From assembly GCA_016179745.1 (NCBI GenBank), contig JACPCP010000014.1:751-64750 (forward strand): a stretch of 64,000 bases of DNA, read 5' to 3'. The notes beneath the pieces were generated by a model. It worked only from the letters and a program-made list of their open reading frames with translations, was not told where the DNA came from and searched no databases. Shown here one piece after another: positions 1 to 31,444 of the stretch. Both the position numbers and the translations under genes were made by a program. Positions within the stretch are counted from its first letter, which is position 1. Every line of letters begins with the position of its first letter. This DNA comes from Candidatus Omnitrophota bacterium (GTDB lineage: Bacteria; Omnitrophota; Omnitrophia; Omnitrophales; JACQLI01).

Positions 1-3000
1 TCGCTCGTTTCTTCCTCAACTCCTCCCCCCTTTAACCTTTCCCCGTTCGCCTTCTTTGCCGTCCGCGCTTCGGAGCGGCGGATACCTTCACTTTGCCCGT
101 CTCCTTTGCCCTCAAATTTCCTTACGAGAAGGGCCTGAACCATTTCTTCCCCGGCCTTAAGCTTTTCCTGGATTGAGCCAAAGTGTTCTTTTAAAGAAGA
201 AAATTCCTCCGGAGAAAGTCTATCCCCCAAAGATTTTTCTAAGATTCCGATGCCGTTTAAGAGCCCGGTCCGCCCTTTTGATCCATCCCCGCTTCTGGCT
301 TGATCGTAAAAACCTATCCGTGCGGTCAATTGCGCGAGGATATCGCCAAGAAAGTGCTCGACTAAATCAGGGCTCACCTTATGCTTCGTAAAAAGTTTAA
401 TGAACAGATTCGTGTAACGAAGAAGGGCATCGTCATATTTTTGATCTTTATGAAACGACTCCAGTAAAATCTGTTCGATCCCTTCCCTCGTTCGAACCAT
501 CCGTTGAGGCCATGATGAACTGCTATCCCATGTGAAATGATTTTTATTGAAGGCAACCCAATCCTCTTGGACTTGATAGAACTCGTCATGAGCCTTACTG
601 ACCTTCGCCATCAATTCTTCAAATTGTGTTATTTTGAATACTCCGAATGAAACGATTGTAATAATGGATGCGATCGTAAAAACTCCGGTATTCCATAATG
701 TGGGGTTGCTCCAAAAAGCTATGAATCCAACAAGTGTCGCAATAGCACCGACCAGGATTGCAGCAAATGAACCTTGCTTGATCCACCAAACCACCCCCTT
801 CTCTCCCGAAATTCCCTCATCCCGTGCTTTGGTTCCGCCTTGCCGAAGCTCCGCACGAGACTGCATCACCTCTATTTCATAGGCCTCCAGCGCCCGATCG
901 TAATTCCGAGTGATTTCATCGAGCCGGGTCAAATCTTGATCGTTTTTAATGTCTAATACTCTCCGGCGGAATTCGGCATAGAGGTCTGAGAACTGCTCGG
1001 CCGCCTGGAGGGCGCTCAAATAGGACAGGGCTGATCTGTGTTCTTCATCGGAGGTGAGGACTTCTCCGGAGGGGATTTGGGCAATGAGGGCCCGTTCCTT
1101 CAGCAATACGATCTGGACGGCGTCGGCAATGGCGTCCTCGACAGGCACTTTGATCTTCTCCATCTGGATTCGTTCGTCAGGCGGCAGGCTCTCGAGAATA
1201 AGTTTCTTAAGCTCTCCCGAATCGATTGATTGAGCAACCTCCTTCAAGAGATTCCTTAACTCATACCCCTTTTCTTCGATAAACTGTTGAACGAAACGGC
1301 CGAGCTTCCGGTAAACGTGGGGCCTCACGAAATCATAAAGGCCGATATACCGGGCGATGGCATCAGCGGTCCAATTCCCCCGAGTGACGATGCGCCGAAT
1401 CCTTCGGTGATCATCGATAAAATTAAAGAAAATCGTTTCCGAAATGTTCATGGCGCTTTGGAGTCTGGTACTTGTTGTTTTCGGATCGGAGCCCGGATAG
1501 AGCGTCTGGCTTAAATCTCGATCAAGTCCGCCGGTGACAAACAGATTTGCCAGGCTAAAATAACTCGATATCCTGAGTTTTAACTGCGCCTGGCCCGGGG
1601 TGCTCGCGGCCAAATCCGGCTCCAGGATTAAAGGAGCGGGAAAGTGAAAATCCTCGATCCGTTCCATGGCAAGGTCATGGATCAGATCTTCCTGGCTCGT
1701 GAGGGGACCCTGGTCAGGATTTTTCAGGACGGTGCGCAAATAAAATTGACTATACTGCTCGGAAAACTCCGCCGCGCTCATCAAGTAGAGAAAATAGAGA
1801 GCGTAGGAATTCGCCCTTTCCTCAAACTCCTTTCCCGGAAGACGCCCCTCTACTTCCTGAAGCTCGAGATCAAGAATAAAATCGTTCACGTAGCCAAGCT
1901 CTTCGTAAACCGTCCGGAAGGACCCCTCAAACTGTTGTTTAAAATCTGGGGAAAGATTCTGCGTCATTCGAGTCGCCATCTCCCCGCTCCTGATTGCCTC
2001 CTTTAATTCTTTGTAAACTGTCTCCTCAGGCGCCCTCTCCCATTCCGGTTGCTCCCTCCATTCTCTAAAAATTTCATCAAAGTATTTGTGCAGCGTTCCA
2101 TAAACATGCGTTTTCGCCAAGGCATACAGTTCGCTGGGGAAGGGTTTGTGGAATCGCTCGGAAATCCCCTCATTCATCCGTTTGTGGCGCAGGAAGTGCC
2201 GAAGCTGCTGCTGGTGCCACAGAAAATCCCGGGCAATCTTGTTTGCGACCTTTAAAGGAATCGCATGGGCTTCCTCTTCTGAATAAGAAAATCGCTCGAC
2301 AAGAGACGGCAAAATGTCTTCCCTGATCTTTTTCTCCAGGTCCGCTTGTTCCTCTTCCAAGAAATGAATAATCCCGGCCGTCGCCTGATCGATCACCTGA
2401 GGTGACAATACAAGGGAGGGGACCGGCCCGCTGCGCTTCATCCTGATTTCCTGGGCTATTGTCTCTGCACTGCCTGCAAAATAAGCCAGGGCAGCGATAA
2501 ACGCCTGCCGGTTGAACCGAGAGCCGAACTCTTGATTGATTTCGGCGACGGAACGGTCTGCTTCCGGATTGCCTTTAACATATTCACCCAGGACCTCTTG
2601 AAGACGCTTTCGGCCTGCTTCATTAAGCCCGGATGCGTTGGGATCTTGCCCAAAGTTCTCGCTCACCTTTTTCAGGTTTCCTGCCGGTCCGGGGCGATGT
2701 TGAAGCTCCACAATGGCTCTGTTTTTACCGGGATCGCCATAGATCGCATCGAGATAACGGACCAGCTCTTCAAATGTGACGTCATTCCTCTCCTCCGTCC
2801 TCACCTCGGAGCGGCCGGGAAAGGAAGGAGTTTGTCCCGCTCTCTGGTGATTGACGTCTTTTTCCCTTTCTTTGCCCAGTAGTTTTTGAGGAAAGTCCTG
2901 AATTTCATAAAGGGCGTATCGACCGTCATTGAACGTCGGTGACAAACCTTCTTCCTCACCCACCACCCGATTCCCCCTCAATCGAAGGGTCTCAAAACCA

Positions 3001-5888
3001 GAGTGTCTCTGCGAGTTAGGGAGTCGGTAGTCGAACTCATCCGTTATAGGAAATTCAATGAGCCCCCTCTTACGTTGTATCCAGTAGATGCCGCGATCCG
3101 TATGCACGAGGTAATCTTCGGGTCCGCTTCGGACCATACCTGACACACGACCGATCTTCGGATGAAACTCCTTCAGCCAATCTGACATTTCAATACCCTG
3201 CCAAATGCCTAAAGCCCTGAGGCCATCCCCAAAAAGGCCTGTAAAAAGAAAATCAAGGAGATTGATTTTCCAAAAGAAAGAAACCAGCCTCGCGGCCTCC
3301 CCCGTCAGAGGTGGCATAAAGATCAGAGCCGCTAATGCAACCCCTAAGTTTGTGAGAGGCCCGGCAAGGGTAATTAGGAGTTCCTGCTGAGGAGATAAGA
3401 AAAGAGGATTCCCATGGACATACTCTGGTGAAACCGCGAACTGGAGTGGATGAAAGCGGACTCTCTCAAGGGCGGGTTTCCCTTTCCATCGACTGTATGA
3501 TTGAATCATTCTAGCGGCCACATAATGTCCCGTTTCATGAAACAGAACGGTGAGCCAGAAAAGCCCCCCCGAGGGAGGGCCGAGGACCCAAGAGACCGCA
3601 GCGATCAAAGATATGTGCAACCAGGCTCTTTGCCGACGCCCATCTTCAAAAGCCGGATGGAACACATTGAATAGCTTTGTCCGGAGGCGTCGACGGCCCT
3701 CAGGTACGATCTTTTGAGTGGGGGATTCCCCTGCACGCGCCTCGGAGCGGCGAGGACGGTTTGCCTGTCCCCCCAAAGGTGCGGCGGGCGCTGCCATCGT
3801 AAGTGATGTCATCTGGGATACATCGTTGAAGGCCAAATTGATGATGGGTATACTGTTGCTGATGATTGCGGGCGCCGGTTGGCTGGTGCTTCCTTCAGGG
3901 ACGTTGAAAGGAGGAGAAGATGAGGAACTTTTGGTCTGAGCTTCCGATGGCAGGTTATGCAATCCTCTCAATTCTGGGGTTGTTCCTTTTCCTCTACCTC
4001 TACGAGTCCATCCGGCAACGGTGGTTCGCCTCCCGGCATTAAGTTTCTGAGCGCTCTGGCGGATCGCAAGTGCGTAAACTTCCCGAATCTCCGGAAATTC
4101 CCTTTGCATCACGGCATCAGGAATGGCGCTGATCAAGGGCTGGCGGGCGGAAGAGTGCGGGGCGAATCGATTTTGGGCGGTCATTAAATTCAGATAAGCC
4201 CGGTCGTCCACGGCCTCTGAGATGTGCGGCATGATTTCAAGGTAAGCGAAGCCCTCCCCCTTCAATCTTTCAAAGAGCCCTCTCGAGTGAAAGCCTCCCG
4301 TGATGAGGACGGCTCTGGATTTCTTTGAGGCCTTCATTCGCAAGATCGCATTTCGAAAGAGAATGTCTTCACGCCGCAGGGCGAGGGAATAGAAGCGGAG
4401 GGCGTGGTTGAAGATTCGGTCAACCGACCATTTCCCCCTCACCCCCACCCTCTCCCCGGAGGGGAGAGGGAAGGGCGGCTTGGACAAGCGGCGGATGGCC
4501 GCTCGATCGAGCCGCCCCGAGCCAGTCGCTCGGGGTGAGGGGTTTCTCTTCAGAATTTTCCCATATTCCTCCGCTGTCAATTGGAGGGAGAATAATTTCC
4601 TGAGGAGGAGGTAATCCTTGTAGCGCCGGACGAGGACTTTCTCTTTTTCTTCCTTGGCCAAATGATCGAGAAGCTTTTCCGTGAGGCGCTCGATCTCCCC
4701 AAAAAGTTCCGGCGCCTTTAATTCACTTTGGAGGATCCGGGCCCCCATCTCAGCACTCCAATGGGGGTAATCCTTAAACCGAAATCCCAGGGGCCCGGCC
4801 TCGTCGTAGAATCTTTCAAAAAATCCACGCACCGACCCTTCGTCTCCCCCCAGCTTCACACGGGAAGCGCAGGTGCCGGACGGACGGCGCAGGCATTCGA
4901 GCCAGACACGCCCCATCCCCTTTTGGCGGACCCACGTGAGGAGCCGTTCCCTCTCTCCCCGGGATTTGACCGAATCGATTTCCTTCTCCATTTCTTTAAG
5001 TTTGAAGATCCGGACAAGCTGGGGCCAATCGAATTGCTCTGCGACATTGGACAAATCCAGTTTCAGTTCGTCCCTCGCCGTTTTTTGAAGGACGCCCAAG
5101 TGACGCATCAAGTCCGAGGAAGTCTCATTTTGAAAGACCCATTCCCGGAAAAACCGTTTGAGGCGGGGATTGAAAATTCGGGAGCCTTCGGTCAAAAGAT
5201 TTGATTTTAATTCGGCAAGGAACCGGTCGGTGCGGGTCTTTTCTTGGTAAACCTTCTGAAAAGCCTTTAAGTTGCGGGAATAAAGTTCGAGATTCTCGAG
5301 ACCAAACCCTTCAAGAGATTTTGTTTTCTTTTTAAGCCCGTCTTCCAGGAAAAATAATTCGGCGCCGCTCACGACGGCCTCCCGGGCCAGGCGGTCCGCC
5401 ATTTTAAAATTGAGCCCGGGGTCTTCAAAAAATTTCAAACGGCCCGGACTGACCCGGTCGATGCCTCCCTCGAGCAGAATCAGATCAAATCCGTAATCTT
5501 TCACAAGGCGGCTCAAAATCTTCCGGGTATTGACCTGCGCCTCGTAACTGGAGTGGGCATCCTGAAGGTGAACAATGAGTGGAGGGTCTTGGTAAGATTC
5601 GCTGCCGGAATTGGGGATGAATCTCTTTTCGATGGAACCCAGGTTTTCCGGAATCTCGATTTGGGAAGCGAGACGGGAGACGGGAACCTCCGGCTTTCCC
5701 GGTTTTGAAAAGGCGCTTCGAAGCGGCACAAGCTCCGGAGCCGGTTGGTCAAGCGGCGATCGGCCGCTCGGTTGTCCGGCACCGCGCGGTTGGCGCGGCG
5801 CGGACCAGGCCAGCGTGGTCCACGTAAAACAAAGGGCCACGGCCAAGGCCACAGCCCTTAAGGGTCTCGAATGGCTCGATGGAATCAT
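1..5888 (-). CDS. Giant secreted/membrane multidomain protein, >1,962 aa, C-terminus beyond the left window edge; contains an M50-like HExxH metalloprotease core; function unknown
   Basis: Own reverse-strand translation: ATG at 5888-5886, then 1,962 sense codons down to position 3 with no stop. Spot-checked on the plus strand in several stretches: no TTA/CTA/TCA at coordinates divisible by 3. Missing from the supplied ORF track, presumably because its stop lies outside the window. The other five frames hold only short ORFs. N-terminus MIPSSHSRPLRAVALAVALCFTWTTLAWSAP looks like a signal peptide; HETGH at 3525-3539; two hydrophobic helices at ~636-775. Confidence 0.85.
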   Translation of the reverse strand, partial: MIPSSHSRPLRAVALAVALCFTWTTLAWSAPRQPRGAGQPSGRSPLDQPAPELVPLRSAFSKPGKPEVPVSRLASQIEIPENLGSIEKRFIPNSGSESYQDPPLIVHLQDAHSSYEAQVNTRKILSRLVKDYGFDLILLEGGIDRVSPGRLKFFEDPGLNFKMADRLAREAVVSGAELFFLEDGLKKKTKSLEGFGLENLELYSRNLKAFQKVYQEKTRTDRFLAELKSNLLTEGSRIFNPRLKRFFREWVFQNETSSDLMRHLGVLQKTARDELKLDLSNVAEQFDWPQLVRIFKLKEMEKEIDSVKSRGERERLLTWVRQKGMGRVWLECLRRPSGTCASRVKLGGDEGSVRGFFERFYDEAGPLGFRFKDYPHWSAEMGARILQSELKAPELFGEIERLTEKLLDHLAKEEKEKVLVRRYKDYLLLRKLFSLQLTAEEYGKILKRNPSPRATGSGRLDRAAIRRLSKPPFPLPSGERVGVRGKWSVDRIFNHALRFYSLALRREDILFRNAILRMKASKKSRAVLITGGFHSRGLFERLKGEGFAYLEIMPHISEAVDDRAYLNLMTAQNRFAPHSSARQPLISAIPDAVMQREFPEIREVYALAIRQSAQKLNAGRRTTVAGWTRRGRGKGTTPELRGLHNLPSEAQTKSSSSSPPFNVPEGSTSQPAPAIISNSIPIINLAFNDVSQMTSLTMAAPAAPLGGQANRPRRSEARAGESPTQKIVPEGRRRLRTKLFNVFHPAFEDGRRQRAWLHISLIAAVSWVLGPPSGGLFWLTVLFHETGHYVAARMIQSYSRWKGKPALERVRFHPLQFAVSPEYVHGNPLFLSPQQELLITLAGPLTNLGVALAALIFMPPLTGEAARLVSFFWKINLLDFLFTGLFGDGLRALGIWQGIEMSDWLKEFHPKIGRVSGMVRSGPEDYLVHTDRGIYWIQRKRGLIEFPITDEFDYRLPNSQRHSGFETLRLRGNRVVGEEEGLSPTFNDGRYALYEIQDFPQKLLGKEREKDVNHQRAGQTPSFPGRSEVRTEERNDVTFEELVRYLDAIYGDPGKNRAIVELQHRPGPAGNLKKVSENFGQDPNASGLNEAGRKRLQEVLGEYVKGNPEADRSVAEINQEFGSRFNRQAFIAALAYFAGSAETIAQEIRMKRSGPVPSLVLSPQVIDQATAGIIHFLEEEQADLEKKIREDILPSLVERFSYSEEEAHAIPLKVANKIARDFLWHQQQLRHFLRHKRMNEGISERFHKPFPSELYALAKTHVYGTLHKYFDEIFREWREQPEWERAPEETVYKELKEAIRSGEMATRMTQNLSPDFKQQFEGSFRTVYEELGYVNDFILDLELQEVEGRLPGKEFEERANSYALYFLYLMSAAEFSEQYSQFYLRTVLKNPDQGPLTSQEDLIHDLAMERIEDFHFPAPLILEPDLAASTPGQAQLKLRISSYFSLANLFVTGGLDRDLSQTLYPGSDPKTTSTRLQSAMNISETIFFNFIDDHRRIRRIVTRGNWTADAIARYIGLYDFVRPHVYRKLGRFVQQFIEEKGYELRNLLKEVAQSIDSGELKKLILESLPPDERIQMEKIKVPVEDAIADAVQIVLLKERALIAQIPSGEVLTSDEEHRSALSYLSALQAAEQFSDLYAEFRRRVLDIKNDQDLTRLDEITRNYDRALEAYEIEVMQSRAELRQGGTKARDEGISGEKGVVWWIKQGSFAAILVGAIATLVGFIAFWSNPTLWNTGVFTIASIITIVSFGVFKITQFEELMAKVSKAHDEFYQVQEDWVAFNKNHFTWDSSSSWPQRMVRTREGIEQILLESFHKDQKYDDALLRYTNLFIKLFTKHKVSPDLVEHFLGDILAQLTARIGFYDQARSGDGSKGRTGLLNGIGILEKSLGDRLSPEEFSSLKEHFGSIQEKLKAGEEMVQALLVRKFEGKGDGQSEGIRRSEARTAKKANGERLKGGGVEEETS
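4434..4470. repeat. GC-rich palindromic repeat core embedded in frame in the giant ORF
   Basis: ccccctcacccccaCCCTCTCCCCggaGGGGAGAGGG with a perfect 10-bp stem (4448-4457 / 4461-4470). Same core as the copies at 31254-31295 and 31318-31357. Translated as ...PLPSGERVGVRG... Confidence 0.7.
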
Positions 5889-5952
5889 ATAGGAATTGCG
5901 AAAAGGCTGACGGAGTTTCTTAAGCTTTTTATTAAGTTCGAAACGTGAGTAA

Positions 5953-5981
5953 AAGATACCTGACAACGAGGCACGGGTCAA
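5953..5981 (-). promoter_or_regulatory. Candidate sigma70-type promoter of the giant gene
   Basis: Minus strand reads TTGACC (5981-5976), 17 nt, TATCTT (5958-5953), about 65 nt upstream of the ATG at 5888. Confidence 0.35.
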
Positions 5982-6063
5982 GGCAGGAGAAGAAGTTTTA
6001 TGGACGGCCGGATTTTAGGGTTAACCTGTTACAAGTAAACAAGTTAGAAATAAGCCAGGCGCA

Positions 6064-31180: not shown

Positions 31181-31210
31181 AAGATACCATACCCCCCCAG
31201 GGTATGTCAA
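31181..31210 (-). promoter_or_regulatory. Promoter of the csoR-cus operon with a CsoR operator between the -35 and -10 elements
   Basis: Minus strand reads TTGACA (31210-31205), 18 nt, TATCTT (31186-31181). The spacer contains ATACCC-CCCCA-GGGTAT (31189-31205), the GC-tract inverted repeat type described for CsoR operators. Confidence 0.7.
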
Positions 31211-31224
31211 GCTTCGGTTTATTT

Positions 31225-31392
31225 GGGTACACCACCGTAATTGCGGCCCCTTTCCCCTCTCCCTCTAAAGAGGGAGAGGGGCAGGGTGAGGGTGGAGCGT
31301 GGCGGCAACTGCCAATTCACCCCCTCACCTGAATCCTCTCCCCCAAGGGGGAGAGGAGAAAAATGAATCAGCGCAGCTACGGTGGTGCACCC
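31225..31392. repeat. 168-bp composite palindromic (MITE-like) element with about 21-bp terminal inverted repeats and two inverted copies of the CCTCTCCC/GGGAGAGG hairpin core
   Basis: Left end gggtacaccaccgtaattgcg (31225-31245) is the reverse complement, apart from 3 mismatches, of the right end cgcagctacggtggtgcaccc (31372-31392). Internal cores lie at 31254-31295 and 31318-31357 in opposite orientation. Confidence 0.7.
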
Positions 31393-31444
31393 CATTGATC
31401 TTGCCCTCTTGACTTACGGGTTCCCGTCCAGCATTATTCAATCG

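Follow-up and report, generated by a model that had tools for sequence, protein, structure and literature searches.

An in-frame BoxC/PIT/TM_ECO repeat in a giant gene of an Omnitrophota genome, and a candidate DUF559 endonuclease behind the spread of its family

The repeat known as TM_ECO was earlier named BoxC and PIT (Holder et al. 2015, PMC4666352), and is traced in that paper to Bergler 1992 and Hoyne/Maher 2000. It has 3610 occurrences in 262 proteobacterial genomes, is "always located intergenically" in Escherichia coli MG1655, and is without association to transposons, phages or plasmids (PMC4666352). According to the same source, earlier work on PIT/BoxC detected neither promoter nor terminator activity and no effect on RNA polymerase, the TM_ECO triplex forms in vitro only as an isolated strand and not in double-stranded DNA or in vivo, and local genome variability is higher around TM_ECO loci. 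Here we describe a copy of this repeat that is read through in frame within a giant gene of a Candidatus Omnitrophota bacterium, in a 64,000-nt stretch of DNA that we call the window (contig JACPCP010000014.1, positions 751 to 64,750 of the forward strand). The best explanation, to which we assign a probability of about 0.72, is that the element is a BoxC copy residing as a foreign passenger in a hypervariable protein linker, and that copies of this kind are spread, probably, by a DUF559 endonuclease acting in trans.

Two other systems invite comparison. The Rickettsia palindromic elements (RPEs), associated with the names of Ogata and colleagues (2000), are reportedly palindromes of roughly 100-150 nt that lie in frame within genes, add a peptide to the product and are tolerated at permissive sites; to our knowledge they are restricted to Rickettsia, and we know of no enzyme gene associated with them. 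The repetitive extragenic palindromic (REP) sequences and REPINs, with their RAYT genes, are said, after Nunvar (2010) and Bertels and Rainey (2011), to occur singly or as inverted pairs and to flank a gene of the nuclease type.

A sequence-only reading of the window had described a perfect 10-bp hairpin within the giant open reading frame (ORF), together with a pair of the same motif in the csoR/marR intergenic region. Both statements are borne out by direct reading of the letters. The window carries CCCCCTCACCCCC at 4434-4446, A at 4447, CCCTCTCCCC at 4448-4457, the loop GGA at 4458-4460 and GGGGAGAGGG at 4461-4470; the arms 4448-4457 and 4461-4470 form a perfect 10-bp stem with CCCCCTCACC just before it, and the intergenic copies lie at 31255-31292 (plus strand) and 31322-31357 (minus strand). 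The hairpin is part of a larger structure. The sequence CCCCTCACCCC (4435-4445) is perfectly complementary to GGGGTGAGGGG (4532-4542), and this pair encloses three hairpins, giving a four-way junction with an 11-bp closing stem that measures 108 nt, or 36 codons, on the minus strand. The foreign unit is probably this whole 108-nt structure rather than the segment of about 45 nt that had been proposed. The features of the gene and the element are as follows.

1 to 6014, minus strand: N-terminal 2004 codons of the giant ORF, a stop-free frame that runs off the window start and matches the host protein (P0006) at 100%.
4435 to 4542, minus strand: the 108-nt structured element, recognised by its perfect inverted repeat and fold scores, encoding about ...PSPRATGSGRLDRAAIRRLSKPPFPLPSGERVGVRG...
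4436 to 4470, minus strand: the BoxC/PIT/TM_ECO core, on the coding strand CCCTCTCCC, CTCCG, GGGAGAGGG, TGG and GGGTGAGGG, a strict match to the published pattern.
4448 to 4470, no strand: the perfect 10-bp hairpin CCCTCTCCCC-GGA-GGGGAGAGGG, the feature first flagged.
4473 to 4517, no strand: the second hairpin, with arms 4473-4492/4498-4517 that are 80% complementary, encoding GRLDRAAIRRLSKPP; inverted repeat and fold.
4515 to 4535, no strand: the third hairpin, CCCCGAGC-CAGTC-GCTCGGGG; inverted repeat and fold.

The minus-strand frame from 6014 to 1 is open over all 2004 codons and reads ...LSKPPFPLPSGERVGVRGKWSVDRIF... / ...RRLSKPPFPLPSGERVGVRGKWSVDRIF..., so that the giant ORF and the in-frame passage through the motif, both suggested earlier, hold without a stop; the ORF had been absent from the list of ORFs because its frame runs off the window. 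Its full product is the 2196-aa hypothetical protein MBI2167242.1 (our P0006; locus tag HYU34_03230), from a Candidatus Omnitrophota metagenome-assembled genome (MAG), which is identical to the window frame and is a singleton when clustered at 90% identity. An exhaustive profile search, on which the size of the family rests, yielded 8577 cluster representatives with proteins of up to about 7800 aa; a word-indexed protein search retrieved just 5 distant homologues. The members that we compared (P0006-P0152) have in common a signal peptide and an N-terminal module of about 600 aa that is conserved; the sole Pfam hint is a sub-threshold match to Peptidase_M50 at aa 819-900.

Chance can be excluded as the origin of the motif because shuffled sequence yields next to no matches: the hairpin pattern has three matches in the window as against 0.00 in 100 dinucleotide shuffles, and a relaxed three-block pattern has three sites as against 0.01 per shuffled window. 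The repeat is about 37 nt long, and its flanking 70 nt are unique within the window. The structure in the mRNA that had been suggested for this place is predicted to be very stable. The coding strand of the 141-nt neighbourhood folds as RNA at −90.9 kcal/mol (shuffle mean −61.0; z −6.71) and as DNA with z −6.15, and when the ORF is scanned in 294 overlapping windows, whose folds average −38.7 kcal/mol (sd 10.6), the element is the strongest outlier, also after correction for G+C.

The segment 4436-4470 on the minus strand is the sole site in the window with a strict match to CCCTCNCCC-N3-6-GGGNGAGGG-N3-GGGNGAGGG, the pattern published in PMC4666352. There are three BoxC copies in the window; the one at 4436-4470 lies within a stop-free frame of more than 2000 aa, and the other two are intergenic and come within the published pattern only if longer loops or a single mismatch in each block are allowed. 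All three keep the mirror symmetry of G-blocks 2 and 3 that G.G, A.A and T.A triads call for; in the ORF copy, folding GGGGAGAGGG back on GGGTGAGGGG gives 10 triads of the allowed kinds, and the register-shifted copy at 31322-31357 likewise conforms. The motif also occurs upstream of fabI in E. coli MG1655, where it is TM_ECO no. 9 in Table 1 of PMC4666352, and a related enterobacterial segment has a median of 15 matches per E. coli genome. When GTDB was scanned, at one genome per species, with the composite pattern CCCTCACC-N1-8-CCTCTCCC-N2-12-GGGAGAGG, at least 120 loci were recovered from at least 120 species of many phyla, namely Alpha-, Beta-, Gamma- and Deltaproteobacteria, Planctomycetota, Verrucomicrobiota, Chloroflexota, Cyanobacteria, Acidobacteriota, Omnitrophota, Bipolaricaulota and others. 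Over the whole window, Rfam at the gathering threshold gave no family match and a tRNA scan found none. Judged by its match to the published pattern, the element is shown to be a member of the BoxC/PIT/TM_ECO family, in a context that is unreported for BoxC: intragenic, in Omnitrophota, and in a 108-nt form with an expanded loop.

In IMG/VR, at least 120 contigs predicted to be viral or proviral (unscreened for contamination by host flanks) contained the same pattern, and three of them carry a DUF559 unit.

The repeat had been likened to REP sequences and to miniature inverted-repeat transposable elements (MITEs). What stands of this is that a dispersed palindromic repeat family is involved; what does not is that it is a lineage-specific REP, since the motif is pan-bacterial BoxC and, being present across many phyla, is not confined to a lineage; a classical MITE is not supported either. 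Membership in REP/REPIN-RAYT was rejected, as the genes flanked by the repeat are DUF559 genes (Pfam PF04480) and no RAYT was seen. A classical MITE is disfavoured: we saw no transposase, no parent insertion sequence (IS) and no target-site duplication. At the ends of the window element and of 21 DUF559 units, no direct repeats were evident by inspection, for which no statistics were computed; inverted ends are present. Membership among the RPEs was discarded, the sequence being BoxC and the host an Omnitrophota bacterium. By analogy, the 108-nt element would nevertheless work like an RPE while not being one.

To place the element in the protein, we aligned the region for 152 family members and took linker lengths from 144 homologues. 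The element lies in the N-terminal module between two conserved blocks, LLRKLFSLELTxEEY and DxLFxxALxFY...ITGGFH. From anchor to anchor the linker measures 30-72 aa (median 48) in the homologues and 56 aa in the window protein; the idea that the repeat added a loop to the protein thus fails, as the linker is not longer than in homologues, and the element occupies or replaces a hypervariable linker instead. The check proposed for the insertion was an alignment of orthologues; the databases contain no close one, and alignment of more distant homologues (28-44% identity) showed the element to be absent from all 144 that were alignable. Of about 150 examined, one exception, P0082, has a BoxC pair of its own at this place. 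Deletion of the 13 aa of the core would leave a linker of 43 aa, within the family range. Most homologues carry a KPSxLxxRLxA motif at the linker, onto which the window translation can be forced in two ways; therefore, protein alignment alone cannot fix the boundaries of the element.

The exception is informative. P0082 is 31% identical to the window protein in this region, and its linker, SPLPLGEVGRETPGEGPHPGQPLAVSPSPKGRG, consists of an inverted BoxC pair with expanded loops in the same position. Its DNA (L206, about 3230-3340, on a contig of 43% G+C) folds at −92.8 kcal/mol, and one loop bears a mini-hairpin. P0082 is without the native KPSxLxxRLxA motif, and its linker has a normal length of 48 aa. 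Two non-sister members, therefore, have different BoxC architectures at the same permissive site, with 15-20 native residues left in each, and the BoxC pair of P0082 is independent of the window element. We infer that the whole 108 nt is element-derived, representing a symmetric CCCTCACCC-hairpin-GGGTGAGGG form with one loop expanded; the compact version of this form also occurs at two of the GTDB loci (L051 and L064). The foreign origin of the element is well supported. BoxC DNA would have entered the gene most likely by replacing the middle of the native linker rather than by plain addition, and would survive there as a tolerated passenger, given a linker that accepts 30-72 residues of almost any sequence. 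Such tolerance is expected because the length is a multiple of three, the frame has no stop and the site is permissive. We assign no specific function to the element for its host gene. It may have side effects, namely a very stable structure in the mRNA or the non-template strand and a loop rich in Pro, Gly and Arg. The odd peptide PLPSGERVGVRG is repeat-derived and not a functional motif, and the site that the repeat marks in this very large, uncharacterised family of proteins is a permissive one.

BoxC copies are depleted in ORFs: at least 200 stop-free codons on both sides were found for 10% of copies as against 24% of random positions. We kept in-gene cases only where Pfam domains lay on both sides, because stop-to-stop ORF length is a misleading test in genomes of 65-73% GC; five loci (L016, L067, L100, L118 and L029) were discarded as in-ORF copies, being junk frames or two adjacent genes. 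The cases retained are metG and four others, the latter from Planctomycetota, Betaproteobacteria, Acidobacteriota and Verrucomicrobiota.

ligA of a Planctomycetota MAG (L101), aa 362-388: 27 aa that the E. coli protein lacks, placed between PLKL and LEVRGE.
mfd of another MAG (L006), aa ~360-400: about 48 aa more than in the E. coli protein, in a stretch that includes an inverted BoxC pair.
IcmF-like fused mutase (L015), aa 510-520: in-frame BoxC, read through.
ABC exporter (L011), aa 420-432: in-frame BoxC, read through.

The earlier proposal that a repeat family enters genes without breaking the frame is thus upheld, with ligA and mfd as further genes interrupted relative to their E. coli orthologues. 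Five of the six reading frames are open in 78-97% of 156 BoxC copies, the closed frame being due to TGA in GGGTGAGGG; insertions in multiples of three are therefore tolerated.

A possible source of BoxC mobility emerged from metG. At L026, two BoxC copies flank a DUF559 domain inside this gene. In E. coli, the neighbour of BoxC no. 9 is ycjD; this, too, is a DUF559 gene, and its 3' end extends into a BoxC-like hairpin. Across the 120 BoxC loci (853 kb, searched with tblastn), DUF559 genes were found in 6, each abutting BoxC. As an independent sample, we collected 80 loci with YcjD-like DUF559 genes from metagenomes (L124-L203). In this subfamily, 50 of the 80 loci had BoxC at most 250 nt from the DUF559 gene: 36 of 76 upstream, 35 of 73 downstream and 25 of 69 on both sides. 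Upstream copies are almost all in sense and downstream copies mostly in antisense orientation, giving the order sense, gene, antisense; the farther flank, 141.5 kb in all, held just 9 BoxC copies. The units are 392-479 bp long, and sequence conservation ends at the outer hairpins. Likeness is greater within a unit, between its left and right ends, than between ends taken from different units (0.90 versus 0.79), a contrast reached in 0 of 5000 permutations. These results show an association between BoxC and DUF559. In most units the frame of DUF559 contains no stop of its own; it usually continues through the right repeat and ends 5-60 nt past it. Whole units can also lie in the frame of a host gene.

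L124-L203, L002, L022, L026, L068, L080, L112, and E. coli NC_000913.3 1351204-1351760: BoxC-DUF559-BoxC units.
L026 2112-2648, L002 1308-1793 and L188 1408-1880: whole unit in frame in metG, between the anticodon-binding and tRNA-binding domains.
L135 1439-1871: whole unit in frame in a DEAH helicase gene, between the two RecA-like domains.

PDB 3HRL gives a match to the profile of the DUF559 protein, which belongs to the Vsr clade of PD-(D/E)XK nucleases. Probably this endonuclease mobilises BoxC: a YcjD-like DUF559 enzyme, Vsr-like and of the PD-(D/E)XK type, would drive the spread of BoxC in trans, as RAYT does with REPs. A broader version holds that BoxC represents the terminal inverted repeats of a pan-bacterial selfish DUF559 unit, solo copies and empty pairs, the three copies of the window included, being non-autonomous derivatives mobilised in trans; we regard this as tentative, somewhat more doubtful than probable. 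As to the substrate, block 3 is block 2 with a single A-to-T change. An alternative hairpin of blocks 1 and 3 would hold one T.T mismatch because of this difference, and one may speculate that it is a plausible substrate for a mismatch-type nuclease. A literature search found no paper linking DUF559 or YcjD to BoxC, which is not proof that such a link is unpublished.

In E. coli, at about 1351240-1351420 (L123), the last ~45 nt of ycjD (GGAGACGGTGCTGGAGAATATTC...) are duplicated between the hairpin at the gene end and BoxC no. 9, which suggests a past rearrangement at the right end of the unit.

Grouping the counted E. coli strains by what we take to be their phylogroups gives 1-2 TM_ECO copies in B2, 6-15 in D, E and F, and 19-30 in A, B1 and C. 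ycjD was found in 3378 of 5426 complete E. coli genomes. PMC4666352 gives the counts per strain in its supplement. The groups reported to carry ycjD are A, B1 and C, with eefRABCD in its place elsewhere (PMC12817139).

Several observations count against the explanation that we favour. Concerning the enzyme, tblastn found no DUF559 gene in the 64-kb window. Because genes associated with BoxC supplied the DUF559 query alignment, the resulting proportion of 62% is valid for that subfamily only. TM_ECO copy number in E. coli tracks ycjD status, but the correlation is confounded by phylogeny. Concerning the element, further copies of hairpins 2 and 3 were sought in the window and none beyond chance was found. 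The insertion is deduced from distant homologues only (28-44% identity, the protein being a singleton of its 90% cluster). Deletion of all 36 aa would leave a linker of 20 aa, below the family minimum of 30; a simple insertion, therefore, misfits, and replacement must be invoked. Some stretches of the encoded peptide (NPS.., AAIRRL, and the GERV shared with P0005) can also be aligned with the motif native to the linker. As a native motif, "GERV" was rejected: the P0005 DNA is non-palindromic and non-BoxC, and the likeness is weak and probably due to chance.

One could envision three other scenarios. In the first, selection acts on the structure as a cis-acting element of this gene, at the RNA or DNA level, for instance a translational pause for folding or export or a site of mRNA processing or stability, which evolved in place or was recruited. 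The extreme local stability of the fold, the top outlier of the ORF, would fit this view, as would the equally stable element in the same linker of P0082 and the coincidence of the G-rich strand with the coding strand in the window gene, in ligA and in the ABC exporter. However, the same motif lies mostly in intergenic DNA beside unrelated genes in many phyla, about 150 homologues do without such a structure, and the PIT/BoxC studies cited in PMC4666352 found neither promoter or terminator activity nor an effect on RNA polymerase. The orientation within genes is also variable, the IcmF-like case being antisense and mfd holding a pair. We consider this scenario unlikely.

The second scenario, which is the published interpretation, is that the motif is kept by an intrastrand DNA triplex of its G-strand that promotes genome instability, with the gene copy as a by-product of error-prone repair or recombination and no dedicated enzyme. 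The three window copies do keep the mirror symmetry of blocks 2 and 3 needed for a purine-motif triplex, PMC4666352 reports the triplex in vitro and raised variability at TM_ECO loci, and at one E. coli locus ycjD plus BoxC stand in place of the eefRABCD operon. The same paper, however, saw no triplex in double-stranded DNA or in vivo; propensity alone leaves a nearly identical 35-nt sequence across phyla unexplained, as well as the fixed inverted arrangement around DUF559 genes, and we think this scenario improbable. The third treats the element as an artefact, with the palindrome arising by chance or the contig being a chimera formed across a short repeat, as might be feared for a repeat in a MAG; this is very improbable given that shuffles give 0 matches, that both flanks belong to the same protein family, collinear and with the frame preserved, and that the repeat is only about 37 nt long with 70 nt of unique flank. 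A BoxC passenger in a hypervariable linker, probably spread by a DUF559 enzyme, is the reading we retain.

The intergenic copies of the window form an inverted pair, hairpin-GGGTGAGGG...CCCTCACC-hairpin, between the CsoR-like and MarR-like ORFs. This layout is identical to that of a DUF559 unit without its gene, an "empty" unit.

31255 to 31292, plus strand: intergenic BoxC/TM copy; relaxed fit, with an 8-nt first loop and a stem 2 bp longer.
31322 to 31357, minus strand: intergenic BoxC/TM copy, inverted; register-shifted blocks and a 5-nt second loop.
31225 to 31392, no strand: outer 21-nt inverted repeat (31225-31245/31372-31392, 86% complementary), which encloses the BoxC pair.

The 168 nt from 31225 to 31392 fold at −107.5 kcal/mol (z −8.92). 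The arms of the outer repeat, GGGTACACCACCGTAATTGCG and CGCAGCTACGGTGGTGCACCC, lie directly upstream of the MarR-like gene and may represent either the two halves of an operator palindrome or the termini of some larger element. Directly upstream of the CsoR-like ORF (30882-~31160, minus strand), TACCCCCCCAGGGTA at 31190-31206 is a G/C-tract palindrome, presumably of the type bound by CsoR repressors. Two small ORFs, 4408-4614 (plus strand, 68 aa) and 31219-31395 (minus strand, 58 aa), are translations of the repeats, with peptides such as LTPTLSPEGRGKG and SPLPLGGEDSGEG, and are a likely source of spurious "hypothetical proteins" in annotations.

In the 25-30 years over which BoxC/PIT has been studied, neither its origin nor its way of spreading has been established; for both, the DUF559 unit offers a testable explanation. 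Three results bear on this, namely the occurrence of BoxC far outside the Proteobacteria, its in-frame passage through the essential genes ligA, mfd and metG, and its position as the inverted ends of a DUF559 unit. Compared with the E. coli repeat, the window element shares the three-block sequence, the inverted pairs and the lack of an obvious link to the function of neighbouring genes, and its three copies in 64 kb suggest dispersal as well. It differs in being read through in frame, whereas the MG1655 copies are reported as always intergenic, in an expansion of the second loop, on one side, to 61 nt with two extra hairpins, and in its host, since the strict pattern was known from 262 proteobacterial genomes and is found here in Omnitrophota and many other phyla. 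Whereas PMC4666352 reported no link to mobile elements, BoxC flanks DUF559 genes here.

With RPEs, the element has in common that a palindromic repeat lies in frame at a permissive protein site; the sequences, however, are unrelated, and BoxC occurs across the bacteria, mainly between genes, and is depleted in ORFs. Like MITEs such as Correia and ERIC, BoxC is short and non-autonomous, has inverted ends, can lie within transcripts and can form stable RNA hairpins, but no target-site duplication or parent IS with a DDE transposase is seen for it, and its internal three-block architecture is different. The free-standing or intron-borne homing endonuclease genes of the Vsr/PD-(D/E)XK type (table in PMC3424549) resemble the DUF559 units in being small, selfish and patchily distributed, and in encoding nucleases of one fold clade. 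Homing, however, needs a specific empty allele and leaves no dispersed solo terminal repeats, and no intron or intein is present here.

The REP/RAYT system is a parallel in layout, in that repeats flank a single-copy enzyme gene in inverted orientation and far outnumber it. The gene flanked by BoxC, however, encodes a Vsr-like PD-(D/E)XK DUF559 protein and not an HUH Y1 transposase (IS200/IS605-like), and BoxC keeps nearly the same sequence from phylum to phylum, while REPs are specific to a lineage. Unlike REP/RAYT, the BoxC-DUF559 unit usually has a frame that reads through the right repeat, and as a whole it can lie in the frame of a host gene. If our reading is correct, the unit would be a selfish counterpart of REP/RAYT that is built on a different enzyme fold and can sit within the frame of the gene it enters.

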